From assembly GCA_037045145.1 (NCBI GenBank), contig JBAOIA010000012.1, positions 857,550 through 921,549 on the forward strand: 64,000 bases of DNA. The letters are read 5' to 3'. The notes under the pieces are model-generated. The model did not search any database, was not told the origin of the DNA, and was given only the letters and a program-made list of their open reading frames with translations. The stretch comes from Bacteroidia bacterium. GTDB taxonomy: Bacteria > Bacteroidota > Bacteroidia > AKYH767-A > OLB10. Below are positions 6,758-35,996 of the stretch, in pieces; within the stretch, counting starts at the first letter, position 1; each line of letters starts with the position of its first letter. Both the position numbers and the translations under genes were made by a program.

Positions 6758-6769
6758 ACAAAAAATAAA

Positions 6770-7855: not shown

Positions 7856-8698
7856 GTGAAACACTTAATCTTTTTTTTATTCATACTTGTTTTTGCATCC
7901 TGTTCTAAAGAAACCGAAAAGGAAACTGTTTACACTACCTTTCAGGTTAATAAAACTGATACATTACATAGTATAAAAAGCTCCGTTAAGATGGTTTATA
8001 TTCCAGGAGGGGAATATAAACCATTCTACGGTTCTAACACCACATTGGTAAACGTAGCTCCTTTTTTAATGGACGAAAGAGCCGTGACTAATGAAGAATT
8101 TCTACAATTTGTCATTGCAAATCCTCAATGGCAAAAATCAAATATTAAAAGACTGTATGCAGACACCAACTATTTAAAGACATGGCCTACGGATATTTCA
8201 TTACCTGAAAATGCATTGAAAGATGCTCCTGTATGTAATGTATCATGGTTTGCTGCTAAAGCATATGCTCAAAGTGTTGGCAAACGTTTGCCAACATTGG
8301 ATGAATGGGAATTTGTAGCTATGGCAGATGAAGTTACAGCCAATGCAAGAAAGAAACCTAAATATTCAGATGACATCATTGATCTATATCTTCAAAAAAA
8401 CAGGCAATTCAAATCTGTAAAACAAAGCCCACCAAACTATTGGGGTGTTTATAATATGTTTGATCTGATATGGGAATGGACTGATGATTTTAATGCTGTA
8501 CTGACAACCGGTGATTCGCGAAATGGAGAATATAATGACAAGAGCCTTTTCTGTGCAGGTGGTGCTACTTCGGTAACTGATGTCATGAATTATGCAGCAT
8601 ACATGCGATTTGCACTCCGTACGTCCATCAAAGCTGATTACACTATTGGAAATTTAGGATTCCGGTGTGCTAATGACACAACAATAATTAAACAATAA
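7856..8698 (+). CDS. nirV: FGE-sulfatase (formylglycine-generating-enzyme-like) domain lipoprotein, NirV-like
   Basis: 'NVSWFAAKAYAQSVGKRLPTLDEWEFVA...GNLGFRCA' is FGE/SUMF1 domain sequence. It lies immediately downstream of nirK, as NirV does. Lipobox 'FASC'. Confidence 0.75.
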   Translation: MKHLIFFLFILVFASCSKETEKETVYTTFQVNKTDTLHSIKSSVKMVYIPGGEYKPFYGSNTTLVNVAPFLMDERAVTNEEFLQFVIANPQWQKSNIKRLYADTNYLKTWPTDISLPENALKDAPVCNVSWFAAKAYAQSVGKRLPTLDEWEFVAMADEVTANARKKPKYSDDIIDLYLQKNRQFKSVKQSPPNYWGVYNMFDLIWEWTDDFNAVLTTGDSRNGEYNDKSLFCAGGATSVTDVMNYAAYMRFALRTSIKADYTIGNLGFRCANDTTIIKQ

Positions 8699-8710
8699 CA
8701 CTATCATTTT

Positions 8711-9304
8711 ATGAAACTCATTTCACTTTTTTGCATTTCGCTTTTAATGCTTGTTTCCTGCAAAGAAAAAACAGAATCCAAGCAGGATACAGAAGCAACT
8801 GAACAACTTCCTTCCAACTCAATTTTTAATCTCACCTCTGACTGGCAAAATCAAGACGGGAAAACAATAAAGCTAAATGACTTACAAGGCAAGACGCTGG
8901 TAGTAGTTATGATTTATACAACATGTAAAACTGCCTGTCCGATTCTTGTTGCAAAAATGAAAACGATTGAATCTAAATTTGATCGAAAAGACATTGATAA
9001 AATCAACCTCGTTTTAGTTTCTATTGATCCGAAAACTGATACTCCTGAGCACCTTAAAGAATTTTCGATTAAAAATGAAATGACCGGACCACAATGGACC
9101 TTTTTACGCTCTGATGAAAATGCAACCAAAGAATTTGCAAACGTGCTTTCTATGAAATATAAAAAGATTTCACCAATAGATTTTTCACATTCAAATATTA
9201 TCAGCACATTTAAACCCAATGGAATTTTGGTAAGTCAGGAAGAAGGTGATATAAACGTTGATAAAGTTGTTGCAACTGTCAATCAAACAATCAGAAATAA
9301 ATAA
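8711..9304 (+). CDS. SCO1/SenC copper chaperone (thioredoxin-like), lipoprotein
   Basis: 'TTCKTACPIL' is the CxxxC copper-binding motif, followed by '...H' in a SCO-like fold. Lipobox 'LVSC'. Fits the nirK-nirV-senC context. Confidence 0.8.
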   Translation: MKLISLFCISLLMLVSCKEKTESKQDTEATEQLPSNSIFNLTSDWQNQDGKTIKLNDLQGKTLVVVMIYTTCKTACPILVAKMKTIESKFDRKDIDKINLVLVSIDPKTDTPEHLKEFSIKNEMTGPQWTFLRSDENATKEFANVLSMKYKKISPIDFSHSNIISTFKPNGILVSQEEGDINVDKVVATVNQTIRNK

Positions 9305-9395
9305 AAACACTTAATTAAGTTAACCATCGCTTTTTAACTTAAAATTACTTTTAATGAAGTAAGTAATACTATTTGTCTTCCAAAGCTATATTTGC

Positions 9396-10061
9396 ATGAT
9401 GGCAAAAAGATATTCTTTTTTTCAGTGGTTGTTTAGCTTTCTATATCCCGTCATCATACAAAAAGATCAATCGGACGTGAATAGCGTTTTAGAGACTACC
9501 TTGGAAAATGGCAAACTGGTTCTGAACGCTGCAAATGCCAATTACAGCTACGGAAGTCTTTACCGTGTTTTTATAAAAGCATTACTTCGTTTTAATATTA
9601 ACATTAAGAACAAAAAGAAAATTTTAGTTCTTGGCATGGGTGGTGGAAGTGTTGTAAAGTTTTTACTTAAAAACAATTCGCAAGCACAACTTGATGCAGT
9701 TGAAATTGACCGGAAGATTATTAGCATTGCTAAAGAAATGTTTGACCTGACTCCCACAGACAGATTAAATATTTATGCAACAGATGCCATAGAATTCACA
9801 CAGAAATGCACAGAGAAATACGACTTGATTTTAATAGACATTTTTATTGACGATGTTGTTCCTGAGTTTTGTTTCACAGAATCCATTTGGAAATCATTGC
9901 AAAACATTAGTCTTCCAACTTGTGACATTGTATTTAATGCCAGCATGAATCATAATTCCCAAAAACATAATCTTGAATCCCTCAGGCTGCTTAATATAAA
10001 AGAGAAAATCAAATTAGAACAAAACCTTTTTTTTCTGTTACAACCTACTGTGAGTAAGTAA
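9396..10061 (+). CDS. Spermidine-synthase-like (PABS-family) SAM-dependent methyltransferase-fold protein
   Basis: 'KILVLGMGGGSVVKFL...AVEIDRKIISIAKEMF...YDLILIDIF' is the spermidine-synthase-like Rossmann motif arrangement. Confidence 0.5.
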   Translation: MMAKRYSFFQWLFSFLYPVIIQKDQSDVNSVLETTLENGKLVLNAANANYSYGSLYRVFIKALLRFNINIKNKKKILVLGMGGGSVVKFLLKNNSQAQLDAVEIDRKIISIAKEMFDLTPTDRLNIYATDAIEFTQKCTEKYDLILIDIFIDDVVPEFCFTESIWKSLQNISLPTCDIVFNASMNHNSQKHNLESLRLLNIKEKIKLEQNLFFLLQPTVSK

Positions 10062-10129
10062 TTTGTAAGTGCCACATTTTTTTAATCCATTGCATTATAT
10101 TTGCCCAATTAATGCAAACTCCATAACAA

Positions 10130-11014
10130 ATGAAAAGACTCTACACAATAATAATCTTCCTTTCAATTACCTCAGGCGTTAAAGCACAAAATGCAACCCC
10201 CAATGCAGGTTTTGAAAACTGGAATGCTGTTGGAAACCGCTTTGACCCTGCCGACTGGAATAATTTGAATCCAAGTACTGCAATAATAGGTGTGCTAACA
10301 TGCGCACGTGCCTCTGGTGCAGATGCTCACAGTGGCAACTATGCAATTAAATTAACCACTAAATTAATTCCGGCTTTTAATATCATAGCGAATGGTATTG
10401 CAAGCACAGGTACATTGATTACAACACCACCTTATGGTGTTTCAGGAGGCATTGCTTATACCGGTCGCCCTGACAGCATTACCGGATGGTATAAGTACAC
10501 TCCTGCAGGTACAGATCAGGGGTTTGTAGAACTTCAACTGTTAGGAGCAACAAACACTGACACTATTGGATATGTGAGATTTGAAACACCTAATGCCACA
10601 GTTAGTACATACACACGATTTGCGGCTGCTGTCAACTATCTTTCTACAGCAACACCTTCAAATTCTATTTGGATTCTTTCTTCCAGCAAGGGAGTTGGGC
10701 CGATTGTAAACAGTCAGATTTTTATTGATGATATAGCAATGGTTTTTAATTCGTCATCAGTAAATACTATCAATTCAAAAAATGAAGTAACAATTCTTGG
10801 CAATGTCATAAAAGAAAAAATTCGATTTAACTATAAAAACACAGGTGTTTATCAATTCAGGTTGATAGATACTGCAGGACGTATTGTAGCAGACACTCAA
10901 CTTAACTCACAACAAAGCACCGTAGATGTTACTTCTTTGGATGGTTTGTATTTTTATACCATAGAAAACAGTACAGGTATCATCAATACAGGAAAAATAA
11001 TTATCAGGAATTAA
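10130..11014 (+). CDS. Secreted hypothetical protein with a T9SS type-A C-terminal sorting domain
   Basis: Signal peptide 'MKRLYTIIIFLSITSGVKAQ'. The C-terminal roughly 80 aa, '...GVYQFRLIDTAGRIV...GLYFYTIE...GKIIIRN', resembles the Por secretion tail. Confidence 0.6.
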   Translation: MKRLYTIIIFLSITSGVKAQNATPNAGFENWNAVGNRFDPADWNNLNPSTAIIGVLTCARASGADAHSGNYAIKLTTKLIPAFNIIANGIASTGTLITTPPYGVSGGIAYTGRPDSITGWYKYTPAGTDQGFVELQLLGATNTDTIGYVRFETPNATVSTYTRFAAAVNYLSTATPSNSIWILSSSKGVGPIVNSQIFIDDIAMVFNSSSVNTINSKNEVTILGNVIKEKIRFNYKNTGVYQFRLIDTAGRIVADTQLNSQQSTVDVTSLDGLYFYTIENSTGIINTGKIIIRN

Positions 11015-11015
11015 T

Positions 11016-13412
11016 ATGCGCTATCTAAGTAACGCAAAAAAAACTTTTTTCTTAATAATCGTAATCCTCCTGTCAGGCATTTCCTGCATTGCACAAATGG
11101 GTGTGTTGAAAGGAAACGTTTATTTAAAGCAAAGTGGAGAACCTGTTGCCGGTGCCGGTATTTTTCCTCTCCATGACAAGTCAATAGGTGTGGCATCTGA
11201 TGCTGATGGAAGTTATGAGATAAATCTTCCTGTTGGAAAACAAACTATAGTATATGCACTGACAGGTTTGAGAAATGATACACTTACATTAGATATTAAA
11301 GATGGTATAGAGACTATCCGTAATATCTACCTAACATCAAACCTTAAAAATCTTAATGTAGTTGTTGTTTCTGCAAGTAAGTACGAACAGCGTATTGAAG
11401 ATATTACTGTAAGCATGGAAGTTATCAGTCCAAAGCTTATTGAAAACAGAAACACCACAAATGTAACCAGTGTGCTGGAGCAAACTCCCGGTGTTACTAT
11501 ATTAGATCAGGAGCCTCAAATTCGCGGTGGCAGTGGTTTTAGTTTTGGTGTTGGCAGCCGTGTAGCAACACTCATTGACGGACTCCCTATAATGACAGGA
11601 GATGCCGGTCGTACTGATTGGCAATTTATTCCTGTAGAAAACATTGAACAGATTGAAGTAATTAAAGGTGCTTCTTCTGTATTATATGGCTCATCAGCGT
11701 TAAGTGGAACAATTAATTTCAGGACAGCATATCCAAAAGAGCGTTATCACACCTACTTAAGAACCTATGGTGGTGTTTATGATAAACCATCAAACAGAGA
11801 AGCAAAGTGGTGGGATGGCCCTGCAACTTTTTCAGGTATCAACTTTTTACATAGTGAGAAAATCAATCGCTGGGATTTAATCATTGGAGGTAACGGATTA
11901 TATGATCACGGATTTATTGGCCCTCCTTTAGCAATGAGTTCTTTGCCTTTTCAGGATACAACTATCAGCAATAATGATGTTGCATCCCGCTGGGGCAGGT
12001 TAAACTTTAACATCCGTCATCGTTTCAAAAATATTGAAGGACTTTCAGCTGGTATCAACGGAAATTTTATGCAGTCGCACTCCAATTTTTCTTTGGTATG
12101 GGCAAATGACAGCACAGGAATTTACAATGCATTTCCAAAAACCATGACACTTACCGATTCAAAAACATTTTATATTGACCCCTACATCAGCCTTACAGGA
12201 AAGAAAGGCTCATCACATCAACTGCGTTCGCGTATTTTCTATGCCGATAATGACAATGGCAACGATCAGTCAAATAAAACAAATGTATATCTTGCTGAAT
12301 ATCGTTTTAACCGCGAAATAATTTCATTAGGAAGATTAAATGTTACATCAGGAGCCTATTTTCAGCAATCATTCAGTCAGGCCTCACTGTATGCAGGAAG
12401 CGGCAGCAATAAAAACACACTTGAAAACTATGCAGCATTTATACAATTGGAAAAAAAGCTGATAAAAAAACTTTTGGTGTCAGCTGGTTTCAGAGCTGAA
12501 TATTTTGAAATGAACAATAAAGATGCACAACTAGAACCCATTTTGCGTGCAGGATTAAATTATCAACTTACAGAAGGAACTTTTATCCGTTGCTCCTATG
12601 GACAAGGCTATCGTTACCCTACCATTGCTGAAAAATTTATAGAAACCGGTGCCGGTGGAATTTCTGTTTTTCCAAATCCGGAGGTAAGACCGGAATCAAG
12701 CTGGAATGCAGAAGCAGGAATAAAGCAAGGTTTTAAGATAGGAAATTTTTTTGGTTTTGCTGATATAGCAGTTTTTGAACAACGCTATCACAACACCATT
12801 GAATATATTTATGCATTATGGCAACCCGATCAGTTAGCCGGATTTAAATTTGTGAATACAGGAAACTCACGTGTTAAAGGGCTTGAAGTTTCCATTATGG
12901 GTGAAGGAAAACCAGTCCGCAATTTCTCCATAAGCTTTTTGGGTGGATATACATATACACTGCCCCAAAGTCTGGAGCCTGACTACATCTTTGCCACAGA
13001 CAACCCTCCAACAGATTTTTTACCCGACTCATTATCATACAGCAACACCAGCACAGACACCTCAAAAAATATTCTCAAATACCGATTTCAGCATATTGCC
13101 AAAATGGATATTGAGCTAACATGGAAATTTATTTCTTTAGGTTACGGATTTCGTTTTTACAGTTTCATGAAAAACATTGATAAAAAGTTTTATGATCTTG
13201 ATGAAACAGTTTTACCTACAGGTGTAAAAGCTTATCGCGAAAAAAATGACAAAGGCACCTTGGTGCATGACCTTCGCTTAGGGTTCAAACTAAGCGATGT
13301 TTTTAAAGCATCATTTTTAGTAAACAATGCCACAAACCTTGAATACTCATTGCGTCCATTAAAAATTGAGTCGCCAAGAAATTATACCTTGCAACTTACA
13401 GCAGCCTTTTAA
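11016..13412 (+). CDS. TonB-dependent outer-membrane receptor with an N-terminal carboxypeptidase-regulatory-like domain
   Basis: 'GVLKGNVYLKQSGEPVAGAGI' is the CarbopepD_reg-like domain. The plug motifs '...IEVIKGASSVLYGSSALSGTINF' follow, and the protein ends in an aromatic residue ('TAAF'). Confidence 0.85.
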   Translation: MRYLSNAKKTFFLIIVILLSGISCIAQMGVLKGNVYLKQSGEPVAGAGIFPLHDKSIGVASDADGSYEINLPVGKQTIVYALTGLRNDTLTLDIKDGIETIRNIYLTSNLKNLNVVVVSASKYEQRIEDITVSMEVISPKLIENRNTTNVTSVLEQTPGVTILDQEPQIRGGSGFSFGVGSRVATLIDGLPIMTGDAGRTDWQFIPVENIEQIEVIKGASSVLYGSSALSGTINFRTAYPKERYHTYLRTYGGVYDKPSNREAKWWDGPATFSGINFLHSEKINRWDLIIGGNGLYDHGFIGPPLAMSSLPFQDTTISNNDVASRWGRLNFNIRHRFKNIEGLSAGINGNFMQSHSNFSLVWANDSTGIYNAFPKTMTLTDSKTFYIDPYISLTGKKGSSHQLRSRIFYADNDNGNDQSNKTNVYLAEYRFNREIISLGRLNVTSGAYFQQSFSQASLYAGSGSNKNTLENYAAFIQLEKKLIKKLLVSAGFRAEYFEMNNKDAQLEPILRAGLNYQLTEGTFIRCSYGQGYRYPTIAEKFIETGAGGISVFPNPEVRPESSWNAEAGIKQGFKIGNFFGFADIAVFEQRYHNTIEYIYALWQPDQLAGFKFVNTGNSRVKGLEVSIMGEGKPVRNFSISFLGGYTYTLPQSLEPDYIFATDNPPTDFLPDSLSYSNTSTDTSKNILKYRFQHIAKMDIELTWKFISLGYGFRFYSFMKNIDKKFYDLDETVLPTGVKAYREKNDKGTLVHDLRLGFKLSDVFKASFLVNNATNLEYSLRPLKIESPRNYTLQLTAAF

Positions 13413-25122: not shown

Positions 25123-25356
25123 TCTGTGAAAAAATTAATTTCAAAAACATGTTCAAATATAGGAATAATGTAGTGTATTTAGATAATAAAAATTGATCAT
25201 AGCAATGCACACACTAACAGGAATAAATCGGGAGCAAATAACTTTTTTTAACTTTGAAAGTCAGGTAGCTCCAGACAACGAAATCCGTTTTATAGATGCT
25301 TTTGTTGAAGAGTTTATTTCTCCTGTCTTGGGCGTAAAGGAGCGCGACCTGACAGT
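25123..25356 (+). mobile_element. MITE-like IS derivative, copy 1. It retains the left end and the first roughly 55 codons of an IS5/IS1182-type transposase (DUF772-like N-terminus)
   Basis: About 90% identical to 27018..27258. It encodes 'MHTLTGINREQITFFNFESQVAPDNEIRFIDAFVEEFIS...KERDLTV*', which matches the 'NPVRfIDAFVd' transposase N-terminal motif. There is no DDE domain. Confidence 0.6.
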
Positions 25357-25380
25357 TGAAGTCAATTAGTGGCTATGGCT

Positions 25381-26946
25381 TTATTCATTCTGCAATACTT
25401 TAGTCAAATCTGTTGCAGTAAAATTTTTGTCTTGTGTGTCGTATAAAGTATTGCCAATCATAAATGCATTTGATGTCGCTTCAACTTCCGCAATTCTTTT
25501 TCCCTCTTTGTTTACAATCAAAGTATTTTTATCTTTTGCGAAGAATTTAAAATCGTTTTTTCGTTCGTAACAAATACTCAACTCATTAAAGTCAATTGTT
25601 TTAGATATGCTAAGTTGTTCGTCAAGTGATAATGTCTTGTACTGATTTGTGAATACAAACAACTTTGTAGAGTCAGATTGATTGAGATTTATTAAATCAC
25701 CGCTTTGAGCTGTAATAAAAACTTGGCTTCCAACAAAGTATTTCAACTCTCCAAAATCGTCTTTTGGAAATGATTTTTGCAAAATTTCATTTCCAGTTTC
25801 CATTGAGTATTTTGCGACTCTGTTTTTAAAAGTAAAATATATGTCTTTGCTGTGTAGTTCAAAACTCAATATCGGGTCGTCTTTGACATCTATTATCGAT
25901 AAAAATATTTGATTACCTGTTTGCCCGTCAAAAGCAGCAAAAAATGGCTTACCAAAGTCTAACTGTCTGTTACCCATAAAAGCCATCCCTTTATTAACCA
26001 TATATATGATGTTTCCTTTTATGAAGATTGTAGATTTGCTTGCTATGTCATCAGGAAAAGGGAACTTCCATATAACTTCTCCCGTTTGCATATCAATTTT
26101 AACCAGTTTTTCTTTTGAGGCAAAATAAATATTGCTACTATCAACTAAAGTATTTGAAACTAAATCTCGAACCAAATTGTGTCCTGTGGACATTACAAAA
26201 GTACCAGTCAGTAAGCCCAATGCCGCACCAGCCGCATTAGCTGCAACGGTTCGTGAATAATCTTTTTTACCAGTAACAGAGTAGTAGTCCCATCCTATTC
26301 CTGTTTTTATATTTATTTTGTGCTAACCTGCTGCTGCAACAATTAAAGTGGAGTCATCTATATAAAAAACATCGTTCCAGCCAAATTCCCTAAATAAATA
26401 TCGTTTCCAAAGTATGTTACCATTTTTTAAATCTATTCCTTCGAGTTCGTTTGTATAGCCTGTTGAGTTTCTAAATTTATAGCCAATACCAATATTGTCC
26501 ACAGGGTCAACGAAATAAATATTGTTTTTGACTTTCCAAAGTTTTTCTCCTGTATTTATATCAAGGCAATAACTCTTATTTCCAAAAGAATGAATTATTG
26601 TTTTACTAAACTGTTGTAAATTACTCGCATGAAATGCGATTTTTTTACTCCATAAAACCTTTTGGTTTTTAATGTCGAATTGAATAATTTTTCCACTTTT
26701 GTCAAGCCATTTTCCGTTTTTACTCAAGCCCCTTAGCTGAACTGTTAAAAGTCCGGTTGTTTCGTCTAAAAACGTTTCATGAATTCTGTCAGGGAAAACA
26801 TATTCCATACCTTTTACAACAAAACTATCAACAAGGCTTTTGCCAAACACCTTTTCATTGCTTAAAACCTGAATTTGATTTTTCTGGCAATATCCCGCTG
26901 TTGTAATTAAAAGCGAAAATCCAAAAATTATTTTTTCTATTTTCAT
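25381..26946 (-). pseudogene. PQQ-like/BamB-like beta-propeller repeat lipoprotein gene interrupted by an in-frame TAG at 26323-26325
   Basis: The ORFs 26323..26946 and 25381..26220 are in the same frame. The 102 nt between them (26221..26322) translate without any stop ('...VAAAG*HKINIKTGIGWDYYSVTGKKDYSRTVAANAAGAALGLLTGT...'). Both halves carry 'G..LW' propeller-blade motifs. The downstream half begins at TTG only in the ORF track. Confidence 0.6.
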
Positions 26947-27017: not shown

Positions 27018-27258
27018 AGCAGTCTGTGAAAAAAAATAATTTCAAAAACATGTTCAAATATAGGGATAATGTTGTGTGTTTAGATAATAAATATTTGACG
27101 TAGCAATGTCCGCATTAACAGGAATAAATCGGGAGCGAATAACTTTTTCAAACCATGAAAGTCAGATAGCTCCAGACAATGAAATCCGTTTTATAGATGC
27201 TTTTGTAGAAGAGTTTATTTCAACTGTTAGGGGCGCAAAGGGGCGCGACCTGACGGTT
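27018..27258 (+). mobile_element. MITE-like IS derivative, copy 2 (same element as 25123..25356)
   Basis: Encodes 'MSALTGINRERITFSNHESQIAPDNEIRFIDAFVEEFIS...'. It is collinear with copy 1 from 'gcagtctgtgaaaaaa' through 'gcgcgacctgac(a/g)g'. Confidence 0.6.
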
Positions 27259-27666
27259 TGGGTATTGCCGAAGTGGCGGATTATTAGCACTAAAGTTCAA
27301 TAGAAATACTACTGTTGAACCTTGCACAATTGTTTCATAGAAGCACTTCTCCCGCCATTTTGGCAATACCGTGTTATAGCCAGTGGTTCTGTTAATCTGT
27401 CCTTGTAAACCATTGTCGTTATTGAGTTTCATTGTCTTTGTCGTGTTGGTTTGTGCGTGTTGCGGATTTTTAATATTTTCAGAAGAAGGGAGAAAAAAAT
27501 TGAATTTCTTCTTGGGTTGGGATAAGCACACTCTTTGCCAAGTTTTGGCTTGTGTGTCGGCTTCCCGAAGGGTCGGGACAGGCCGTGCGACTTGGCAATG
27601 TGTGTGCTTTTGTGCGTTGACTTTTCATTTGGCAAATGTAGTAAATGTTTTAAATTGAAACAAATG

Positions 27667-27727: not shown

Positions 27728-28531
27728 ATGAACATAAAATTGTCACAAAAGCAAATAGGTCAGAGGATAACCGAACTTCGTAAAATGAAAGGGTTGTCTC
27801 AGGAAGATTTGGCTAAAAGTGTCAAAATTTCCCGACCGTCTTTGGCTCAAATTGAGTTAGGAAACAGAAGCGTTGATATTCTTGAATTGCAAAAACTGTC
27901 ATTGGTTTTGGAGTTTTCGCTGGACGATTTTATGTCTAAGGATTTTTCTGCAAGTCAAGATGTTGATTTGAAAGAAGAAAAAAAGGCAAAGAAAGAAGAA
28001 GAACGTATTTCAGTGCCAACCTTGCAAGTCAATAAGTTTAAAAATGTCTTGTTGTATATCCTTGAACGCTGTGCAGGTAAGCCAAATGTTGGTGAAACGG
28101 TTCTTTATAAGTTGCTCTATTTCTCGGACTTCAATTATTATGAATTGTATGAGGAACATTTAACAGGTGCTAAATATCGCAAATTACCTTATGGGCCAGT
28201 TCCGCAAAAATTAGATACAATCATTGGTCAAATGATTGAAAAAGGTCAGTTGCAAAGAGTGAAAACAGAATACCATGGTTATCCTCAAACTCGCTATTTG
28301 CCTTTAGAAAAAGCTGATTTAACTCAATTAAGGGCAAGTGAAAAAGAAATCATTGACAGGGTTATAGAACAAATGAGTGATTGGTCTGCTGCTGCAATCA
28401 GCAACTATTCTCATAAGGATATGCCTTGGCTTGCTTCAAAGGAAGGAGAAGAAATAAATTATGAATTAGCTTTTTATAGAGATGCTCCTTTCTCTGTGAG
28501 AAACTATGGAGATGAAATTGAAGAACAATGA
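27728..28531 (+). CDS. HTH-XRE DNA-binding protein with a C-terminal Panacea (DUF4065, SocA-like) domain; putative antitoxin
   Basis: The N-terminal 'QIGQRITELRKMKGLSQEDLAKSVKISRPSLAQIELG' is an XRE helix-turn-helix. The C-terminal 'VLYKLLYFSDFNYYELYEEHLTGAKYRKLPYGPVP' fits the Panacea domain consensus. Confidence 0.75.
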   Translation: MNIKLSQKQIGQRITELRKMKGLSQEDLAKSVKISRPSLAQIELGNRSVDILELQKLSLVLEFSLDDFMSKDFSASQDVDLKEEKKAKKEEERISVPTLQVNKFKNVLLYILERCAGKPNVGETVLYKLLYFSDFNYYELYEEHLTGAKYRKLPYGPVPQKLDTIIGQMIEKGQLQRVKTEYHGYPQTRYLPLEKADLTQLRASEKEIIDRVIEQMSDWSAAAISNYSHKDMPWLASKEGEEINYELAFYRDAPFSVRNYGDEIEEQ

Positions 28532-28872
28532 CCTTTGACGAATTAACCGAATTTAAAAAGGATTTGAAAAACCTTTTAAAAAAATACAGAACGCTAAATG
28601 ACGATTTAGATGTGGTTAAACGAGTGCTAGAAGTTACACCCGATGAACGACCACCGTTTAGTTTTCGTATTGATAATTTGGGTTTAGAAACGTGTATCAT
28701 CAAGGTTAAGAAAATTGCTTGTAAAGCATTGAAAGGAAGAGGGGTAAATTCAGGGTTGAGATTGATTTATGCTCACTTTCCTGAAGAACAAAAAATTACC
28801 TTCATTGAATTGTATCATAAGAATGACAAGGAAAATGAAGACAAAAAAAGAATAACGGATAATTTTAAATAG
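28528..28872 (+). CDS. RelE/ParE-superfamily-like toxin, translationally coupled to the Panacea protein
   Basis: An ATGA overlap joins it to the upstream gene. 'KALKGRGVNSGLRLIYAHFPEEQKITFIELYHKNDKEN' fits the RelE/ParE core pattern 'G..R.IY......I.fi.l.H'. Confidence 0.55.
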   Translation: MTFDELTEFKKDLKNLLKKYRTLNDDLDVVKRVLEVTPDERPPFSFRIDNLGLETCIIKVKKIACKALKGRGVNSGLRLIYAHFPEEQKITFIELYHKNDKENEDKKRITDNFK

Positions 28873-28881
28873 TCAAATATC

Positions 28882-29115
28882 ATGAGTAAGAAAAATCAAC
28901 ATGTAGTCCCAAGTGGAAAAGAATGGGCGGTAAAAGGCGAAGGCAATAGCCGTAAAACTGCTATTGTGAACACACAAGCAGAAGCAATTAAAATTGCAAG
29001 AGAGATTGCCATTAACAATAAATCAGAAGTCGTTATCCATCGTTCTGACGGAACCATTCGTGATAAAGACTCTTATGGAAACGACCCTAATCCACCTAAA
29101 GACAAAAAGCATTAA
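28882..29115 (+). CDS. DUF2188-family small protein
   Basis: 'HVVPSGKEWAVKGEGNSRKTAIVNTQAEAIKIAREIAINNKSEVVIHRSDGTIRDKDSYGNDP' matches the DUF2188 consensus as I recall it. Confidence 0.65.
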   Translation: MSKKNQHVVPSGKEWAVKGEGNSRKTAIVNTQAEAIKIAREIAINNKSEVVIHRSDGTIRDKDSYGNDPNPPKDKKH

Positions 29116-29118
29116 GCG

Positions 29119-29340
29119 ATGATAGACATAAGTAAACAATCCGTAAATATTGACTGCCCTGAATGTAAACGGTCAATTTCTGTAACTATTCGGCAAGTAG
29201 CTGATGAAGCACGGATAAAATGTTCTTGCGGTCAGGAAATACAGCTGAAAGACAGTAATGGCAACAATCAAAAGGCAATCAGAGATATCAATAAGTCCTT
29301 TAGGGAACTCGAAAACACATTAAAAAAATTCGGACGATGA
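29119..29340 (+). CDS. Small zinc-ribbon protein (CPEC...C-x-CGQ), hypothetical
   Basis: It has four Cys arranged CxxC...CxC. It sits 3 nt after the DUF2188 gene and shares an ATGA overlap with the next gene. Confidence 0.4.
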   Translation: MIDISKQSVNIDCPECKRSISVTIRQVADEARIKCSCGQEIQLKDSNGNNQKAIRDINKSFRELENTLKKFGR

Positions 29341-29822
29341 AAAATTTCTACCTCTACAATAACCGCGTTGAAATTGTCAACGACAACGGAAGCATTTTCA
29401 CAATCTACTTCAACGAACATAGCGGAAAGGTTTATTACCGCTTTAAGATTGGCACTTTATCCAAAATAAAGCACCCGGGTATTTATTTGGGTGAAGATGC
29501 TTATGGCACACATTACTTTTTGCACAATCATTATCACTATGGAAAGGCACACATCACAACGGCTGCCGATTTTATTGAAGGACAAGCGATTTACATTTAC
29601 AACGAAAAGTGCAGCAATACTCCTTTGAAAGTAATTGAAATTGGGTTAAATGAAATACTCAGGGGCGAAAGCTACAAGCCCATTACTTACAACTGCCAAA
29701 CCTATACCAACACGGCTTGCCATAATCAACGCAAAAGTGCCGATGCCGAAAAATGGGTAGGTGGGCTTGTGTTGGGTTCGCTTGCTTTCCTCTTGATAAG
29801 TGCCATTGCAGGAAATAAATAA
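29337..29822 (+). CDS. LRAT/PLAAT-like (circularly permuted NlpC/P60 papain-fold) protein with a C-terminal transmembrane helix; putative phospholipase/acyltransferase
   Basis: The H-box 'KHPGIYLGEDAYGTHYFLHN' (His...His) is followed about 60 aa later by 'ITYNCQTY', a Cys in an NCEHF-like position. The C-terminal 'WVGGLVLGSLAFLLISAIAG' is a transmembrane segment. The His-before-Cys order matches the LRAT family. Confidence 0.45.
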   Translation: MKNFYLYNNRVEIVNDNGSIFTIYFNEHSGKVYYRFKIGTLSKIKHPGIYLGEDAYGTHYFLHNHYHYGKAHITTAADFIEGQAIYIYNEKCSNTPLKVIEIGLNEILRGESYKPITYNCQTYTNTACHNQRKSADAEKWVGGLVLGSLAFLLISAIAGNK

Positions 29823-29858: not shown

Positions 29859-30473
29859 ATGAACAAGAATACAATCATCATCCTAATCGTTGTCATTGTG
29901 ATTATGGGATTAGGTCTTTGGAAGGTGAATGAAACCTTACAAGAAGAAAGAAAAAAGCGAAAGGAAGCCGAACAAGCCAATGTGCGGTTGATTATGGACA
30001 GCATACGCAGGCAAAAAGGTTTTACCGAAGCGGTGAAACTGGAACTGGATAATCTGGCCAAACATTTTGAAGACATTGAACCGAATGTAACGGCTAAAAT
30101 TGCTAAAGCCATTCAGTTGATAGAAATAAACCAAACCGAAAATGCCATTGAAGATTTGGCCGTAATCATGGAAAACCTGCTGGAAGATTATTACAAAAAA
30201 GACAACGGCTTTGTTGCCTTCTTGAAAAACCGCAGGGCGGACCTACATCATTTGCTTACCTATTGCAATAAGGACAAAAAAATAAGCGATGTAGAGTTGC
30301 AGTTTTTTCTTGGCGTAAAAACCATACGCAACAAAGAAGACCACACACTAAATCAAAAGCTGGACGATTACCTGAACGCTACCGGTTTAATTGTAGGCAT
30401 CGGTGCCATTGTAAAAATTGCTTCGTTTTGGAAACAGAAAAAGCAATTGGAACTTATCCCAGTAAGGGCGTAA
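29859..30473 (+). CDS. Membrane-anchored protein with an N-terminal TM helix, a coiled coil and a C-terminal alpha-helical domain carrying an Rx4H (HEPN/DUF4145-like) motif
   Basis: N-terminal TM 'IIILIVVIVIMGLGLW'; a KEAE-rich coiled coil; C-terminal 'FLGVKTIRNKEDHTLNQ', which matches Rx4-6H. Confidence 0.4.
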   Translation: MNKNTIIILIVVIVIMGLGLWKVNETLQEERKKRKEAEQANVRLIMDSIRRQKGFTEAVKLELDNLAKHFEDIEPNVTAKIAKAIQLIEINQTENAIEDLAVIMENLLEDYYKKDNGFVAFLKNRRADLHHLLTYCNKDKKISDVELQFFLGVKTIRNKEDHTLNQKLDDYLNATGLIVGIGAIVKIASFWKQKKQLELIPVRA

Positions 30474-30478
30474 TACAT

Positions 30479-31861
30479 TTACGCTTTTACCTTTTTGTAT
30501 TTTACTTTTTTCTCCGCAGCTATTTTCATGGGCTTTTCTTCAATGGAATATGCTTTGGTTTTTTTGCCGCCTTTTTTCCCCTGAGCTTGCCGAAGGGTTT
30601 CCTTTTCTGCTTTAATCTTTTCCAATAAAACACTGGCAGGTTCATCTTCCGGATTTTGTGCAACCAACTCGCCACGGAATGCTTTTGCCAAAATGCTTTG
30701 GGGAAGTTTATCCAGCATGGCTTTGGCTTTGGTGTAGCGGGCTTCTAACTTATCGGCAAATGCAAAGAGTTGTTCTACCTTTCGGACGATTTCTTTTTGT
30801 TCTACGACTTCAGGAAGCGGGATCGATAGTGTTTTTAGTTGGGTAGTGTTTATCCTAGGTCTTGTTGCACCGTGAATATTCAAAACCAATTGTTCAAATG
30901 AACGCATTGAAGTCAATACAAAAAGCAGAAAGAACTTGTCTATTTTATTTTCATCTGGTCGAATACAAAAGCAATCAGCTTTTGCAATTGCTTTAGTTGG
31001 TAAATAAGGTAAAATGCAAGCCCTTATTTCTTCAGAAATAAAAGAAGAGAAAATTATATCACCTTCGCCAACTGTATGACGCAATAAAGACTGATATTTT
31101 TCTTTTGTTATATAAGTTTCCTTTTCGTGAACAAAATATAGATGTTCAATATTTTCAAGACGAATAACTCGAATACCTTTATCAGTGTAATCAGCAGTTT
31201 TTAAATTTGAACCAAATGGGCCATCAAAAATTCCACCTTTCGGAATTACGGAGTTTAATTCAACTTCGTCCCATTCTTTAAATCCATTCTTCTTCTTCCA
31301 TTCCTCCGTCAACTTACCACTTACAGCAGCAGCCAACACACTTTGCCGAAATCGTTTTAAAATGATTGGTATTTTTTCTAACCGTTGTTTGTTGCTTTCT
31401 ACTTTTTGCATTACCGCATCTAGCTTGGCTACTATGCGGTGCTGCTCGTCAAGGGGTGGAAGGGGGATATGTATTTCTTTTTGTGCCTTTCCCGTTTGAA
31501 CAAACGGTTGGCCTGAACCCCCTTTTGGCCAAAAATTTTCATTATTCAATAAATAGAACAGGTAGTCAACATGTTTATCGTCATTTGCAAATGCTCTAAT
31601 TACCGAAGTATTAGCAATAGTTGTCCATTGCCCATTTGCTCTAAAACATTTACCACATCTTGCTCCAACAGCACTCAATATGATAGCTTCACCTTCTTCC
31701 TCAAAAAAATCAACTTTGCCATCAGGGCCAGTTCCACTAAATGCAATATATTTCCCATCTTCTTTGTAAACCTTTTTAGTTAAAGAAGAATTACCAGAAG
31801 TAATATTAACTACTTCACCTAATAACGGGAATTCCCAACCTTGTGGTAAACTATTCTCCAT
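30479..31861 (-). CDS. hsdS: Type I restriction-modification specificity subunit
   Basis: There are two target-recognition domains, each preceded by the conserved 'LP.GWE...LGE' opening, and a central coiled-coil repeat. Its start overlaps the stop of hsdM. Confidence 0.85.
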   Translation of the reverse strand: MENSLPQGWEFPLLGEVVNITSGNSSLTKKVYKEDGKYIAFSGTGPDGKVDFFEEEGEAIILSAVGARCGKCFRANGQWTTIANTSVIRAFANDDKHVDYLFYLLNNENFWPKGGSGQPFVQTGKAQKEIHIPLPPLDEQHRIVAKLDAVMQKVESNKQRLEKIPIILKRFRQSVLAAAVSGKLTEEWKKKNGFKEWDEVELNSVIPKGGIFDGPFGSNLKTADYTDKGIRVIRLENIEHLYFVHEKETYITKEKYQSLLRHTVGEGDIIFSSFISEEIRACILPYLPTKAIAKADCFCIRPDENKIDKFFLLFVLTSMRSFEQLVLNIHGATRPRINTTQLKTLSIPLPEVVEQKEIVRKVEQLFAFADKLEARYTKAKAMLDKLPQSILAKAFRGELVAQNPEDEPASVLLEKIKAEKETLRQAQGKKGGKKTKAYSIEEKPMKIAAEKKVKYKKVKA

Positions 31862-33257
31862 TGAATTCCAGTAGGGTTAATATTTCTTTTAAATCGTCCA
31901 CCACAGCTTCCAGTTCTGCAATGGCTTCTGTGGCAAGGTCGTTGGGTTCGGGTAAGCTGTCGGCATCTTCTATGCTTTCGTCTCTCAGCCAGGTAATGTC
32001 GAGTTTGTAATTCCGTTTTGTAATTTCCTCTATTGTAAAACAACGGAAACGCCCTGTTTCGCCTTCGTCTTTTCGTTTGCTTTTTCCGTTAGGGTCGGTG
32101 CCGTAGCATTTTTCAAAATCGGTAAAATGCTTGTCGGTTAGCGGACGGTCTTTTTTGGTAATGCCTTCAATGTTGCTGCGGTTGTCGTAAATCCAAACTT
32201 TTTCGGTGGGCAAACCTTTCTGAAAGAAAATCACATTGGCTTTTACACCCTGTGCGTAGGGAGTAAAGGTTCCTCTGGGCAAACGCACAATGGTGTGCAG
32301 GTTGCAATCCTGCATCAGTATTTCAAATACTTCACCTGCTTTGTCTTCAAACAACACATTGTCGGGCAACACTATGGCAGCACGTCCACCCGGTTTCAGA
32401 GTGCTCATAATGTGCTGCACAAAATTCAACTGCTTGTTGCTGGTTTCTACCGTAAAATCATCCCGTTCGGGAACCTGGTTTGCTCCTTTTGTTCCAAAGG
32501 GTGGATTGGCCAACACCACATCAAACCTGGTGCTGTCGGGTGTGTTGTAAATGGTATCGCCCAGTTTTATTTTCGGGGTAACGCCATGCAAATACATATT
32601 CATCAAAGCCAGTCGCCTTGGCCTTGCCACCAACTCCTGTCCGTAATAGGTTTTTTCACGAATGCGTTTTACATCTTCACGGGGCAGCGCACCTTTGCTT
32701 TCCTGCATCAGCCATTCATAAGCCGATACTAAGAAACCACCTGTGCCGCAACTGGGGTCGGAAATGGTAAATGAACTTTTGCCTCTCGGGTCGGGCTTCA
32801 TTAACCGCACCATGCTTTGTATCAAAGGTCGTGGTGTAAAGTATTGCCCTGCACCCTTTTTGCCTTCGCTGGCGGCTTTTTCCAGCAGTCCCTCAAAGGC
32901 AGCACCTTTTACATCCACATCCATGCTCGTCCATTCGTCTTCTTCAATCAGGTTCAGCAGTTTTTTCAAACTCACCGGGTTGTTGAAGCGATTTTGTGCT
33001 TGTGTAAATATTTCACCTAACAGACCTTGCTCTTTGGCCAGTTCACGCAGGGTGTCGGTGTAATGGTCCATCAAATCGCCACCGCTTAATTTGGTCAGCG
33101 ATTGCCAGTTGTATTTTTTATGCAGATGCACTTCTTTTTCATCTGCCATTTTCAGGAAGAGAAGAAACGACAGTTGCTCTATGTAATCGTTATAATCAAT
33201 GCCCTCGTGGCGAAGCGTATGGCAAAAGCCCCACAATTTATTTACTACATCACTCAT
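31851..33257 (-). CDS. hsdM: Type I restriction-modification N6-adenine DNA methyltransferase subunit
   Basis: HsdM_N-type N-terminus; the motif I region 'DPSCGTGGFL' and motif IV 'NPPFG' are present. Confidence 0.9.
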   Translation of the reverse strand: MSDVVNKLWGFCHTLRHEGIDYNDYIEQLSFLLFLKMADEKEVHLHKKYNWQSLTKLSGGDLMDHYTDTLRELAKEQGLLGEIFTQAQNRFNNPVSLKKLLNLIEEDEWTSMDVDVKGAAFEGLLEKAASEGKKGAGQYFTPRPLIQSMVRLMKPDPRGKSSFTISDPSCGTGGFLVSAYEWLMQESKGALPREDVKRIREKTYYGQELVARPRRLALMNMYLHGVTPKIKLGDTIYNTPDSTRFDVVLANPPFGTKGANQVPERDDFTVETSNKQLNFVQHIMSTLKPGGRAAIVLPDNVLFEDKAGEVFEILMQDCNLHTIVRLPRGTFTPYAQGVKANVIFFQKGLPTEKVWIYDNRSNIEGITKKDRPLTDKHFTDFEKCYGTDPNGKSKRKDEGETGRFRCFTIEEITKRNYKLDITWLRDESIEDADSLPEPNDLATEAIAELEAVVDDLKEILTLLEFNGE

Positions 33258-33258
33258 A

Positions 33259-33945
33259 TTATGCTGCTATTGCTAAGTTTATTTCTTGAATCAATTTGGT
33301 GTAATCGTCTGCAAATACTTTTTTGAATTTGTTCAGTCCGCCTCTGTCAGCAAAAACGGGTAATTCCTGCAAATCTTCTTCGTCTAAAGTCATGTTTTGT
33401 TTTAGATGTTCTTTGATGTATTCCATCCATTTTTGTTGTTCGTCATTCAGCCTTTTTCCGGTTGTTACTTTCTGAATGGCTTGGTTCACCCGTTCTTCGG
33501 GGCTTAACAAAGGTTCGGTTTCTTTGGCTGCATGCTTTACCATGCTGATGATGTCAACGGCATCTTTCTGATAAACGATTTTGTGTGCCTTTTGCAAACT
33601 GGCTTCATCATAATTGCTCTCTTTTAGTTTTTGCCTTAGTTCGTTCAAAGCATTGGTGTTCCAATCTTTTGGCTTGTTTAACAAAATGCTGATGGCGGCA
33701 ATTTCATTTTCTTTTCGTTTTACAAATTCAGAAAATGCCAGTAAATAATCCATTGGTTGTAAACCGTATCTTCCTTCTGCTTCAAACAACACCATCGAAC
33801 TCACTTCGTCCTGCACCTCATACCCAACCAGAAAAACCTTTTTGGCTCTTTCGTAGTCCACCAATAGCTTTTGAAACTGCTCGTTTCGGAGCAATTCCAT
33901 CACACTGGTGAAGCTTTCAAATATTTCGGGTAACGATTTTGCCAT
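33259..33945 (-). CDS. HsdR C-terminal-domain-like protein (EcoEI_R_C/DUF3387-type helical domain) encoded as a separate ORF
   Basis: It starts in a TAATG overlap with the stop of the helicase ORF. The sizes add up: 683 aa plus 228 aa is about the length of a full HsdR. The domain identity is inferred from position and predicted helical composition, not from a recognised motif. Confidence 0.45.
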   Translation of the reverse strand: MAKSLPEIFESFTSVMELLRNEQFQKLLVDYERAKKVFLVGYEVQDEVSSMVLFEAEGRYGLQPMDYLLAFSEFVKRKENEIAAISILLNKPKDWNTNALNELRQKLKESNYDEASLQKAHKIVYQKDAVDIISMVKHAAKETEPLLSPEERVNQAIQKVTTGKRLNDEQQKWMEYIKEHLKQNMTLDEEDLQELPVFADRGGLNKFKKVFADDYTKLIQEINLAIAA

Positions 33946-35996
33946 TACTTATACTTATCAAAAAAATTAGAAATCTGCTCGGCAAATTTTCCCATATCGC
34001 CATCAGGAATATAGGTTTTGAATTTGTCACGGGCATTTCCACTCATATCTTTTTCAATTCTATGCAGTCGTTTTGCCAAACGCTTGGCATTGGCTCTGCG
34101 GTCTTCGTTGTTGTATATTTTTTCTATCAGTTCTTTAATGGTTATGGTATCGGTTCCCGGTGGGTCAATTTTAAAGTTGTAGCTGGCATCTTTAAAATAC
34201 TTTATCAATGTTCCGTTGAAACAATCAAAGATTACAAAGTGAGTTTTGCCGATGTCATCACATTTTCGTGTTCCTCTGCCCAACATTTGTTCCCAAAGAA
34301 TACGGCTTTTAACAGGTCGGAGAAAAACAATGTATTCCAGAGAAGGAATGTCAACTCCTGTGCTTAACATATCAACGGTAACCACAATTTTCGGATTGGG
34401 TCTGTTTCTAAACTCTTTAATTTTTTTCAAAGGTCTGTCCACCGTTGGGCTGCCTGTAATCTTTGCCACAAAATCGTCACCCTGATTAAAAACCTGTTTG
34501 CAAATGCTCACCAAACGGTCAGCATGTGAAATCATGGGTATGTCGTTGGATGCAAAAATCAAGGTTTTTGGAAAACGCCCTGTGCGTTGTTCCCACTCGT
34601 CAGTATATTTTTTTAGTTCTTCAATTATTTTTTGGTTGGTGTCGGGGGCTGTAATTTTTTCTTCAATCTCTGTTGAAGTAAATTCCCGCTCATCTTCCAA
34701 TTGGTCAATTTGTTCTCTGCCTGTTTCAGTGTCAATCATCCCCACTTGTTCGCCTTCTTTCAAAAAAGCTCCGTTCATCAACACTTCCGAATTGATAGCC
34801 ACAGCATCATAATCTACCAAAAACCCTTCGTCAATGGCTTGTTGCAATGGATAATTGAAAATAGGTTTTCCAAAATAGGCAACCGTATGTGATGCAGGCG
34901 TTGCAGTTAAACCAACTTTAACGGCATCAAAATGATTTAAAACATTTCGCCAAACATTCGTTTCTTTTGAAGTGTAACCTCTGTGGCACTCGTCAGCAAT
35001 AATCAAATCGAAAGCATGCGATGGAATTGAAAGCGTTTCTGCATCATCGTCTCCACTTCCTGCCTGCTCGGCAGACAGGTCTTCATCCTCACCAAATGCA
35101 CCCGCTTTGCCGTAAAGGTTAATTGCCATTCGCTGGATGGTGCAGACATAAAGAAAGGTTTTTGTTCCATCAGGATTTGTCAAATAGGAATTAGGCAACA
35201 CAGTTGGGTCGTATGCTTCCCCTTCAAAATCTTCTTTCTTAAAGCGTTGTGAGTATAATTCGTATTCGTCTTTAAACTTGATATTTCTCGGTGTGTCAAA
35301 TGATGCAAAAGCAGTAACGGCTTGTGCGGCTAACGACTTTCTATCAACCAAGAACAAAATGCGTTTAGCATAACCGGAAGCCAACATTCGGTAAACAAGA
35401 TTAACTGTGGTGAAAGTTTTTCCTGTTCCTGTTGCCATTGCTAAAAGCATCAGGCGTTTGCCGTCTTCCAAATTATTTTCAAAAGCTTGTATAGCTTCTT
35501 TTTGGTAAGGCCTAAGTCCGGGAGTATTAATGGGCCTGACTTTCAGCCATTGCAAAGCCGTATCTCGTTTTGCGTTAAATAAAGTTTCCATCGCTTCTGG
35601 CTTATGAAAACTGTAAATCTGTCGGCTTAAGTTTTTGTTGTCTCTTACATCTAAATAGTAAATCAATTCACCATTAGAAGAATACAAAAATGGAACTCGA
35701 TATTGATTCCATTCACCAATTGTCTTATCTGCACCTTTTGAATATCGCTTGGCTTGTTCCAACACATTTGCTGCACCAACCTCCAATTTCTTTGCTTCAA
35801 CCACACCTAATAAATTTCCATTTACAACCAAAGCATAGTCCGCAGGTCCGTTTTTTGTTTGCAATTCCTCAATTGCGTGATTTGTCAAAATAGACAAGTC
35901 CATTCCCTCAGAGTAAGGAATGATATGCCAACCGGCAGCTATTAGCTGCTGGTCAATTCTTTTCTTTCTTGTTATTTTCTCTGATTCGTATGTCAT
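33945..35996 (-). CDS. hsdR: Type I restriction enzyme R subunit (N-terminal nuclease plus SF2 helicase core)
   Basis: The HSDR_N-type nuclease N-terminus comes first. The helicase motifs follow: 'MATGTGKT' (motif I), 'DECHRG' (motif II) and 'QMLGRGTR' (motif VI). Confidence 0.85.
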   Translation of the reverse strand: MTYESEKITRKKRIDQQLIAAGWHIIPYSEGMDLSILTNHAIEELQTKNGPADYALVVNGNLLGVVEAKKLEVGAANVLEQAKRYSKGADKTIGEWNQYRVPFLYSSNGELIYYLDVRDNKNLSRQIYSFHKPEAMETLFNAKRDTALQWLKVRPINTPGLRPYQKEAIQAFENNLEDGKRLMLLAMATGTGKTFTTVNLVYRMLASGYAKRILFLVDRKSLAAQAVTAFASFDTPRNIKFKDEYELYSQRFKKEDFEGEAYDPTVLPNSYLTNPDGTKTFLYVCTIQRMAINLYGKAGAFGEDEDLSAEQAGSGDDDAETLSIPSHAFDLIIADECHRGYTSKETNVWRNVLNHFDAVKVGLTATPASHTVAYFGKPIFNYPLQQAIDEGFLVDYDAVAINSEVLMNGAFLKEGEQVGMIDTETGREQIDQLEDEREFTSTEIEEKITAPDTNQKIIEELKKYTDEWEQRTGRFPKTLIFASNDIPMISHADRLVSICKQVFNQGDDFVAKITGSPTVDRPLKKIKEFRNRPNPKIVVTVDMLSTGVDIPSLEYIVFLRPVKSRILWEQMLGRGTRKCDDIGKTHFVIFDCFNGTLIKYFKDASYNFKIDPPGTDTITIKELIEKIYNNEDRRANAKRLAKRLHRIEKDMSGNARDKFKTYIPDGDMGKFAEQISNFFDKYK

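Follow-up and report, generated by a model that had tools for sequence, protein, structure and literature searches.

We describe here a membrane-anchored HEPN gene, located at positions 29859-30473 on the forward strand of a 64,000-nucleotide stretch of DNA from a Bacteroidia bacterium (contig JBAOIA010000012.1; this whole stretch is hereafter called the window). Ribonucleases (RNases) with a HEPN domain rank with the most frequent effectors in bacterial immunity. The product of the gene is predicted to consist of a single N-terminal transmembrane (TM) anchor, a helical linker and a C-terminal domain, which our comparisons support as a HEPN domain that is closest to DUF4145 through transitive homology. 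By analogy with the characterized HEPN enzymes, i.e. PrrC, RloC, the KEN domains of RNase L and Ire1, HepT, Csm6 and Cas13, the protein probably works as a membrane-tethered HEPN RNase that serves as a single-gene abortive-infection or back-up effector. What is new is the family to which it belongs, which is sizeable, unannotated and found mainly in Bacteroidota, and which combines a minimal TM-linker-HEPN build with the full catalytic signature. DUF4145-like HEPN proteins encoded in restriction-modification (R-M) operons, as well as TM-containing architectures of this group, have been recorded before (Anantharaman et al. 2013, PMC3710099); the gene does not represent a new kind of system.

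The open reading frame (ORF) begins with ATG and encodes 204 amino acids (aa). The preliminary description of this DNA, which was made from the sequence alone, had noted a TM segment and an Rx4H peptide in this ORF, and both are indeed present: residues 5-23 are hydrophobic, and positions 30327-30344 read cgc aac aaa gaa gac cac, which encode R157-N-K-E-D-H162 within the peptide LGVKTIRNKEDHTLNQ. Taken alone, the Rx4H motif is weak evidence. In 20,000 shuffles of the 204-aa protein, Rx4H arose by chance in 16% and R[NDH]x3H in 2.7%, and a second Rx4H in the same protein (R125-H130) is not conserved in the family. The signal lies in the conservation.

A word-indexed search returned 67 close homologues, each of about 200 aa, all of which are unannotated or named 'hypothetical' and come mainly from Bacteroidia metagenome-assembled genomes, and an exhaustive phmmer search of 1.8 billion representative proteins returned 118 clusters (at 50% identity) with E ≤ 0.001, nearly all of which are 190-220 aa long. 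From these searches a close alignment (A1) and a wide alignment (A2) were used, the latter comprising 98 relatives that are ~20-75% identical to the query, with most rows at 20-40% and a pairwise identity to the query of about 25% for the family. Over A2, H162 is invariant (98/98), while R157 and N158 are each kept in 96 relatives, the two remaining sequences having H and D in place of N158. The position of E105 is occupied by E in 94 relatives and by D in 3. Four residues further on, where the query has E109, K is found in 66 of the 98 and R in 6 (72 together). The family consensus reads IIENLLK (= Ex3K) ... LKxIRNxEAHEL. Searching the word index again with the profile of the 98 sequences brought little more, and no precomputed Pfam annotation was found among the listed relatives; a cluster look-up of ten distant members likewise gave no informative names.

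The family is essentially confined to Bacteroidota, including Bacteroidales, Flavobacteriales, Pedobacter, Pseudopedobacter, Chitinophagaceae, Paludibacter and Vicingus, and no copy of the gene was found by tblastn in the plasmid and phage collections. One copy, 79% identical to the query and accompanied by the same DUF2188, zinc-ribbon and PPPDE-like neighbours as in the window, lies on a contig binned as Leptospiraceae (L011, JANMOF010000533.1), all other loci being from Bacteroidota; this copy reflects either horizontal transfer or a binning error. Two members, P0144 and P0079, are longer (~370-390 aa). P0144 (L046, positions 6001-7119) carries a C-terminal DUF488 domain, and its gene stands between a CBASS operon (SMODS-HORMA-AAA-SAVED), which lies just upstream, and genes for DUF488, DuOB and DUF4238 on the downstream side. 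In addition, one A2 member, possibly P0079, matches DUF1643.

HEPN domains are up-and-down bundles of four helices with a characteristic anatomy, in which the Rx4-6H motif is placed where helix 3 ends or the loop to helix 4 starts, with a polar residue (N, D or H) directly after the R, helix 2 carries a conserved acidic residue, typically within Ex3[KR], and an insert commonly separates helices 2 and 3 (PMC3710099). The query itself matched neither DUF4145 (PF13643) nor any other HEPN-clan Pfam family at E ≤ 1, and stays below the PF13643 gathering cut-off of 23.1 bits. Among the A2 members, DUF4145 is by far the commonest match (34/98 at E ≤ 0.01), and two of the ten members that were scanned singly lie above the cut-off, i.e. 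P0100 with 31.0 bits and P0143 with 24.3 bits. The query is related to P0100 with E = 1.4e-11 in the search of 1.8 billion proteins, and residues 85-163 of P0100 match positions 12-82 of the 88 positions of the PF13643 profile. The matched span includes the IIENLLK helix and the RNEEAH peptide at 146-151, both of which stand in register with E105 and R157-H162 of the query in the family alignment. Other, weak HEPN-clan matches among the members were to HEPN_Swt1, Ribonuc_2-5A and Hypoth_Ymh. The HEPN or DUF4145-like nature that had been suggested for the C-terminal part is thus recovered in profile searches by way of the homologues, which also means that the Pfam DUF4145 model misses a sizeable branch of its own family.

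The predicted structure points in the same direction. AlphaFold2 with the family alignment gave a model with a pLDDT of 94.2 over the full length, and of 93.9 for residues 72-204 alone, with helices at residues 3-51, 53-70, 75-89, 93-112, 116-122, 129-138, 144-162 and 170-198. Residues 75-89, 93-112, 144-162 and 170-198 correspond to helices 1 to 4 of a four-helix bundle, and residues 116-138 form the insert between helices 2 and 3, as in HEPN domains. In this model R157 and H162 are located at the C-terminal end of helix 3, the polar N158 directly follows R157, and E105 provides the acidic residue of helix 2. Among the best 50 Foldseek matches in the PDB, nearly all are HEPN domains for both models, including AF0298 (2HSB), SsR10 (2Q00), the HepT toxins (7AE6, 7BXO and 5YEP), TTHA (1WWP), Csm6 (5YJC and 8PE3), MtlR (6KCR), the sacsin HEPN domain (3O10) and HepS (9OIJ), with TM-scores up to 0.65-0.70 and probabilities mostly of 0.9-1.0. 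The two findings that the preliminary description had named as speaking against a HEPN domain, namely profile searches without HEPN similarity and an Rx4H outside a predicted helical hairpin, were therefore not obtained.

At the N-terminus, residues 5-23 are strongly hydrophobic, with 19-residue Kyte-Doolittle windows of up to 2.67, and an N-terminal hydrophobic window above 1.6 is found in 89% of the family members. On average, 1.7 K and R residues precede the TM helix and 4.3 follow it within 15 residues; by the positive-inside rule, the N-terminus would therefore face outward and the C-terminal HEPN domain the cytoplasm, leaving an extracytoplasmic part of only ~4 residues. The helix has no conserved polar residue, shows an aromatic belt at positions 19-21 and resembles a simple anchor. 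We considered a cleaved signal peptide but rejected it: the hydrophobic stretch spans ~19 residues, and conservation is lacking for the small residues that the query has at positions 17 and 19. The preliminary description had also spoken of a coiled coil. Residues 24-73 are indeed helical and amphipathic, being covered in the model by the helix 3-51, which contains both anchor and linker, and the helix 53-70, and hydrophobic residues are conserved at positions 37, 42, 45, 49, 55, 59, 63, 66, 70 and 73; the hydrophobic period, however, has its peak at 3.6 and not at 3.5 residues. A canonical coiled coil is not supported, and we use the term amphipathic helical linker instead. The pLDDT dips to 80-83 around residues 41-60.

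The genomic neighbourhood was compared by ORF clustering over 22 further loci that carry a family member. No neighbouring gene is conserved family-wide among these loci and the window. R-M genes occur in the fetched flanks (≤7 kb) at 11 of the 20 distinct loci, whereas the flanks fetched for the other loci contained none. Two distant relatives have the gene directly after an hsd gene: at L041, in the order hsdR-hsdM-Abi_C-hsdS-HEPN, the gene lies 10 nucleotides downstream of hsdS, and at L042, in the order hsdS-hsdR-HEPN, it lies 10 nucleotides downstream of hsdR, on the same strand in both cases. The connection with R-M systems and abortive infection drawn in the preliminary description is supported. 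The neighbours of the distant homologues cover a wide set of defence functions, with type I R-M genes, type ISP R-M together with PLD, Mrr, Hypoth_Ymh together with UvrD, a multiubiquitin/ThiF system, DUF2971, FRG, ABC-3C/SMC, a YobI ATPase, NACHT and CBASS, as well as an OLD-family ATPase/TOPRIM and UvrD helicase pair, which we take to be Gabija-like. Toxin-antitoxin-like pairs are also among the defence contexts of the family. The gene behaves as self-contained defence-island cargo, and often lies close to or at the 3' end of an operon for type I R-M.

Two of these loci deserve a brief description. At L042/L043 (positions 6001-6696), in a Flavobacteriales metagenome-assembled genome, the HEPN homologue that follows hsdR (989 aa) is itself followed by a 36-aa ORF with a weak T1RH-like_C match, a picture that would fit the insertion of the cassette close to where hsdR ends at its 3' side. 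At L009 (positions 8241-11044, reverse strand), the genes immediately downstream of the HEPN homologue code for Hypoth_Ymh, another HEPN-family protein (E = 1.9e-40), for a UvrD-type helicase and for an HsdR-like protein, so that two different HEPN genes stand side by side in one island.

In the window, the membrane-anchored HEPN gene is the last of six tightly packed genes on the forward strand, and converges with hsdS, with five nucleotides between the two stop codons. The features are listed in Table 1.

Table 1. Features of the membrane-anchored HEPN gene and of its surroundings in the window
Feature	Position	Strand	Basis or remark
Membrane-anchored HEPN gene	29859..30473	+	ORF list and sequence; 67 close homologues; 118 clusters at 50% identity
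N-terminal single TM anchor, residues ~5-23	29871..29927	+	hydropathy, charge bias
Amphipathic helical linker, residues ~24-73	29928..30077	+	AlphaFold model, hydrophobic periodicity
HEPN domain, DUF4145-like, residues ~74-200	30078..30458	+	AlphaFold, Foldseek, PF13643 matches of homologues
E105, conserved acidic residue of HEPN helix 2	30171..30173	+	family alignment
R157-N158-K-E-D-H162, Rx4H catalytic-type motif, end of helix 3	30327..30344	+	alignment, model
Terminator-like hairpin and T-run overlapping the HEPN stop codon, in the space that separates the convergent HEPN and hsdS genes	30462..30500	+	
XRE-type helix-turn-helix (HTH) and SocA/Panacea antitoxin-like protein, 267 aa	27728-28531	+	SocA/Panacea E = 1.9e-22
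114-aa ORF, 4-nucleotide overlap with the SocA/Panacea gene	ends 28872	+	faint RelE-like match only
Trio of DUF2188, 73-aa zinc-ribbon and 161-aa PPPDE-like proteins	28882-29822	+	
PPPDE-like protein, 161 aa, C-terminal hydrophobic tail	29337..29822	+	context, not a proven part
Type I R-M genes	30479..35996	-	context, not a proven part
hsdS	30479-31861	-	matches Methylase_S genes of other loci
hsdM	31851-33257	-	matches N6_Mtase genes of other loci
hsdR, split into a 683-aa and a 228-aa ORF	33945-35996 and 33259-33945	-	EcoEI_R_C E = 3.4e-36 in the 228-aa ORF

The terminator-like hairpin that spans the two stop codons has a 12-pair stem followed by CTTTTTGTAT; it is a match to a consensus only, the region having 4 such sites against 2.9 expected. 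A scan for sigma-70 promoters was uninformative, with 11 sites found against 8.4 expected, and its consensus does not cover Bacteroidota promoters. The SocA/Panacea gene and the 114-aa ORF at 27728-28872 look like a Panacea-type toxin-antitoxin pair, and the same pair precedes the gene array at L013. The DUF2188 gene matches the PADLOC candidate PDC-S16 with E = 1e-36. The two ORFs of hsdR overlap by one base at 33945, which could reflect either translational coupling or a disrupted gene. Further upstream, two short ORFs on the forward strand at 25193-25369 and 27106-27303 encode near-identical peptides (…TGINRE.ITF.N.ESQ.APDNEIRFIDAFVEEFIS…), as though pieces of a single gene had been repeated. 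Between them lie two opposite-strand ORFs at 25381-26946, to which no function was assigned.

In the mechanism that we favour, the product would be a bitopic inner-membrane protein with a very short periplasmic N-terminus, one TM anchor, the amphipathic linker and a cytoplasmic DUF4145-like HEPN domain. The active site of characterized HEPN RNases generally needs two domains, and in HEPN families without catalysis the Rx4-6H motif is usually missing in whole or in part, some families not being nucleases at all (PMC3710099). By analogy, we infer an RNase activity that would depend on dimerization, in which RNA would be cleaved without metal when two HEPN domains pair into a composite site. The membrane tether and the flexible amphipathic linker might limit or control the encounter of two HEPN domains, or might place the enzyme where phages enter the cell, and the gene itself may be an autonomous, horizontally shuffled defence cassette. 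Catalysis is favoured because E, R, N and H are near-invariant, while non-catalytic HEPN branches tend to lose the motif. Should the protein simply be one more HEPN RNase of the Abi type, the finding would help annotation but bring no surprise.

A more specific proposal is that a HEPN RNase on a bare single-pass anchor, which has no NTPase, sensor or antitoxin, guards or backs up the type I R-M system by a PrrC-like logic, and that a perturbation of the membrane at phage entry, or the loss of R-M function, triggers the pairing of tethered HEPN domains. The recurrent 3' placement in type I R-M operons recalls PrrC, but an NTPase domain is absent and R-M genes are lacking at half of the loci. 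We consider this proposal tentative and rather doubtful. If true, it would amount to a new activation principle for bacterial HEPN effectors that resembles the clustering of Ire1. The family offers a compact test case for the control that a membrane tether exerts on a HEPN nuclease, and for whether Bacteroidota R-M systems carry PrrC-like back-up effectors.

Several observations weigh against a membrane-tethered RNase. No antitoxin or inhibitor is evident for what would be a constitutively encoded RNase. The query gave no meaningful match in Pfam, NCBIfam, PADLOC or PHROGs, no HEPN model of the first three being matched, and profile searches of the PDB with A1 and A2 returned low-complexity and coiled-coil noise and no solved structure. 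The Foldseek E-values are modest, reaching 0.004-0.01 at best. Helix 4 is unusually hydrophobic, with a window score of 1.69, and exceeds 1.6 in 32% of the family. Finally, Csx28, to our knowledge the only characterized bacterial protein that combines a TM element with a HEPN domain, is a pore and not a nuclease.

Csx28 forms a Cas13b-dependent, octameric, face-to-back pore, its HEPN motif having no catalytic role there. An effector of the same kind, in which the HEPN domain is a scaffold for oligomerization or sensing, protomers arranged in a ring build with their N-terminal helices a pore that depolarizes the membrane on infection, and the conserved R and H are structural or bind RNA ends, is an unlikely explanation for the present family, but the main rival to the reading that we favour. 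The two proteins share the same build, with an N-terminal TM helix followed by a cytoplasmic four-helix HEPN-like bundle in 204 and 177 aa, respectively, and their motifs occupy similar positions (R157/H162 against R152/H157). R152 of Csx28 forms a pair with E122 in its helix 2, in parallel with the conserved E105 and R157 here, and the hydrophobic helix 4 would suit a Csx28-like mode. The Csx28 host, Prevotella buccae, belongs to Bacteroidota, the phylum in which the HEPN family occurs. For a direct comparison, PbuCsx28 (177 aa) was recovered beside cas13b on a metagenome contig by means of a primer sequence from the supplement of the Csx28 preprint, and its identity was confirmed with 8GI1. 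The hhalign comparison of the family profile with Csx28 gave a probability of 0.5%, which is a weak test, since with a single template it also misses a bona fide HEPN protein, Hypoth_Ymh. The Foldseek ranking is better evidence than this low-power comparison, and Csx28 (8GI1) does not appear in the best 50 matches for either model, most of them being canonical HEPN domains. Moreover, the Csx28 motif is divergent (R-M-K-K-I-H) and has no polar residue after the R, where N158 is nearly always kept here; no similarity to Cas13b or Csx28 was found by tblastn in 30 loci (the window and 29 related ones); and the TM helix lacks a conserved pattern of polar or small residues.

The possibility that the HEPN domain is not catalytic, and that the protein binds RNA or nucleotides as an adaptor or regulator, be it one that tethers or modulates the adjacent type I enzyme at the membrane, or one that is MtlR-like, strikes us as improbable. 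It would accommodate the frequent linkage to hsdR, hsdM and hsdS, including positions inside the operon, the presence of MtlR among the structural matches, and the existence of HEPN families that are not nucleases. Non-catalytic families have, however, usually lost Rx4-6H, whereas E, R, N and H are strongly constrained in this family; furthermore, R-M genes are missing from the surroundings at about half of the loci, and the partners differ.

The gene directly upstream in the window bears on a further alternative. The preliminary description took its 161-aa product to be LRAT-like, and suggested a pairing with the HEPN protein as a two-part effector. A match to LRAT was not demonstrated; what we obtained instead was a weak match to Peptidase_C97, a PPPDE family (E = 0.0012, 19 bits, under the cut-off of 29.2), and several homologues of this neighbour carry a precomputed PF05903 annotation. 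An obligate two-component effector made of the HEPN protein and this PPPDE/LRAT-like membrane protein, or a toxin with a small upstream antitoxin gene, is very improbable. Both proteins have a hydrophobic anchor, and the PPPDE-like gene directly precedes the HEPN gene in the window, L009, L011 and L013, while the 161-aa gene belongs to the same small-gene array in L005-L008 and L012. Yet the trio of DUF2188, zinc-ribbon and PPPDE-like genes accompanies the HEPN gene only in the closest clade (≥75% identity), with a gene order that is shuffled between loci, the HEPN gene following an HTH-M78/DUF3368-PIN pair in L005-L008, L010 and L012. The trio was never seen beside the HEPN homologues at 20-50% identity in the loci compared, and it also exists without the HEPN gene, with different cargo in its downstream slot. 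Each gene occurs without the other, and on the basis of the neighbourhood comparison we rejected the idea that the HEPN protein obligately pairs with its PPPDE-like neighbour. Independently of the HEPN gene, the trio or its last two genes recur beside HTH/M78/DUF3368 modules in other genomes (L034 and L036-L039), where the downstream slot holds a 276-aa or a 115-aa protein of unknown function or a DUF2971 gene, and some copies lie near relaxase or integrase genes.

That the protein is no HEPN protein at all, i.e. a helical membrane protein with a chance Rx4H, is already disfavoured and hardly credible: the chance frequency of the motif, the lack of a direct Pfam HEPN match for the query and the weak Foldseek statistics that helical bundles give would allow it, but R, N, H and E are near-invariant across the family, homologues exceed the DUF4145 threshold, both motifs have the HEPN-specific placement in a confident model, and HEPN proteins dominate the structural match lists.

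We finally compare the membrane-anchored HEPN RNase that we favour with known systems. DUF4145 (PF13643, HEPN clan CL0291) is alike in its four-helix fold, with R-N-x3-H where helix 3 ends and Ex3K in helix 2, and in its recorded R-M operon members and TM architectures (PMC3710099). It differs in that the query and its close clade fall under the detection of the Pfam model, and are also missed by the current NCBIfam and PADLOC models, and in that the architecture here is a single TM helix, a linker and a HEPN domain, with no fusion to a restriction endonuclease, helicase, TIR or zinc-ribbon/SH3 domain. The HepT/HEPN-MNT toxins and the minimal HEPN proteins AF0298 and SsR10 are the best structural matches, with TM-scores of 0.57-0.70 over ~120-130 residues, and HepT, AF0298 and SsR10 share with the present domain the minimal, single-domain form with Rx4H. 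Unlike in HepT/HEPN-MNT, no adjacent MNT nucleotidyltransferase antitoxin gene is present here, the protein is tethered to the membrane, and the identity is only 8-15%.

The systems that join HEPN and membrane elements are also comparable. Csx28 of type VI-B2 CRISPR-Cas (PDB 8GI1/7S92) resembles the present protein in architecture and size, and differs by the lack of a detected sequence relationship, the absence of cas13b from the 30 loci and its divergent motif. The anti-phage system known as HEPN-TM, which we take to be FS_HEPN_TM in DefenseFinder, reportedly consists of two separate genes in Enterobacteria. It has been mentioned as a defence system encoded by phage-inducible chromosomal islands (PMC12948488), and it is alike, as compared by description only, in that HEPN and TM elements act in an anti-phage system; a PADLOC scan of the query gave no significant match to a defence model.

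PrrC and RloC are type I R-M-linked HEPN anticodon nucleases, and PrrC is held latent by EcoprrI. They are similar to the present gene in having an HEPN domain of the Rx4H RNase type, and are encoded in or beside type I hsd genes, presumably as a back-up for when restriction fails; the present gene has such a position in the window, L041 and L042. The protein studied here, on the other hand, has no N-terminal NTPase domain or match to an NTPase family, is only 204 aa long and membrane-anchored, and its linkage to R-M genes is frequent rather than obligatory. The Ire1/RNase L KEN domains, to which some of our homologues show the weak Ribonuc_2-5A matches, belong to proteins with a kinase or lumenal sensor domain that is absent here. 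Ire1 is nonetheless a membrane-anchored HEPN RNase that is activated by oligomerization, and thus provides the conceptual precedent for a tethered HEPN enzyme.

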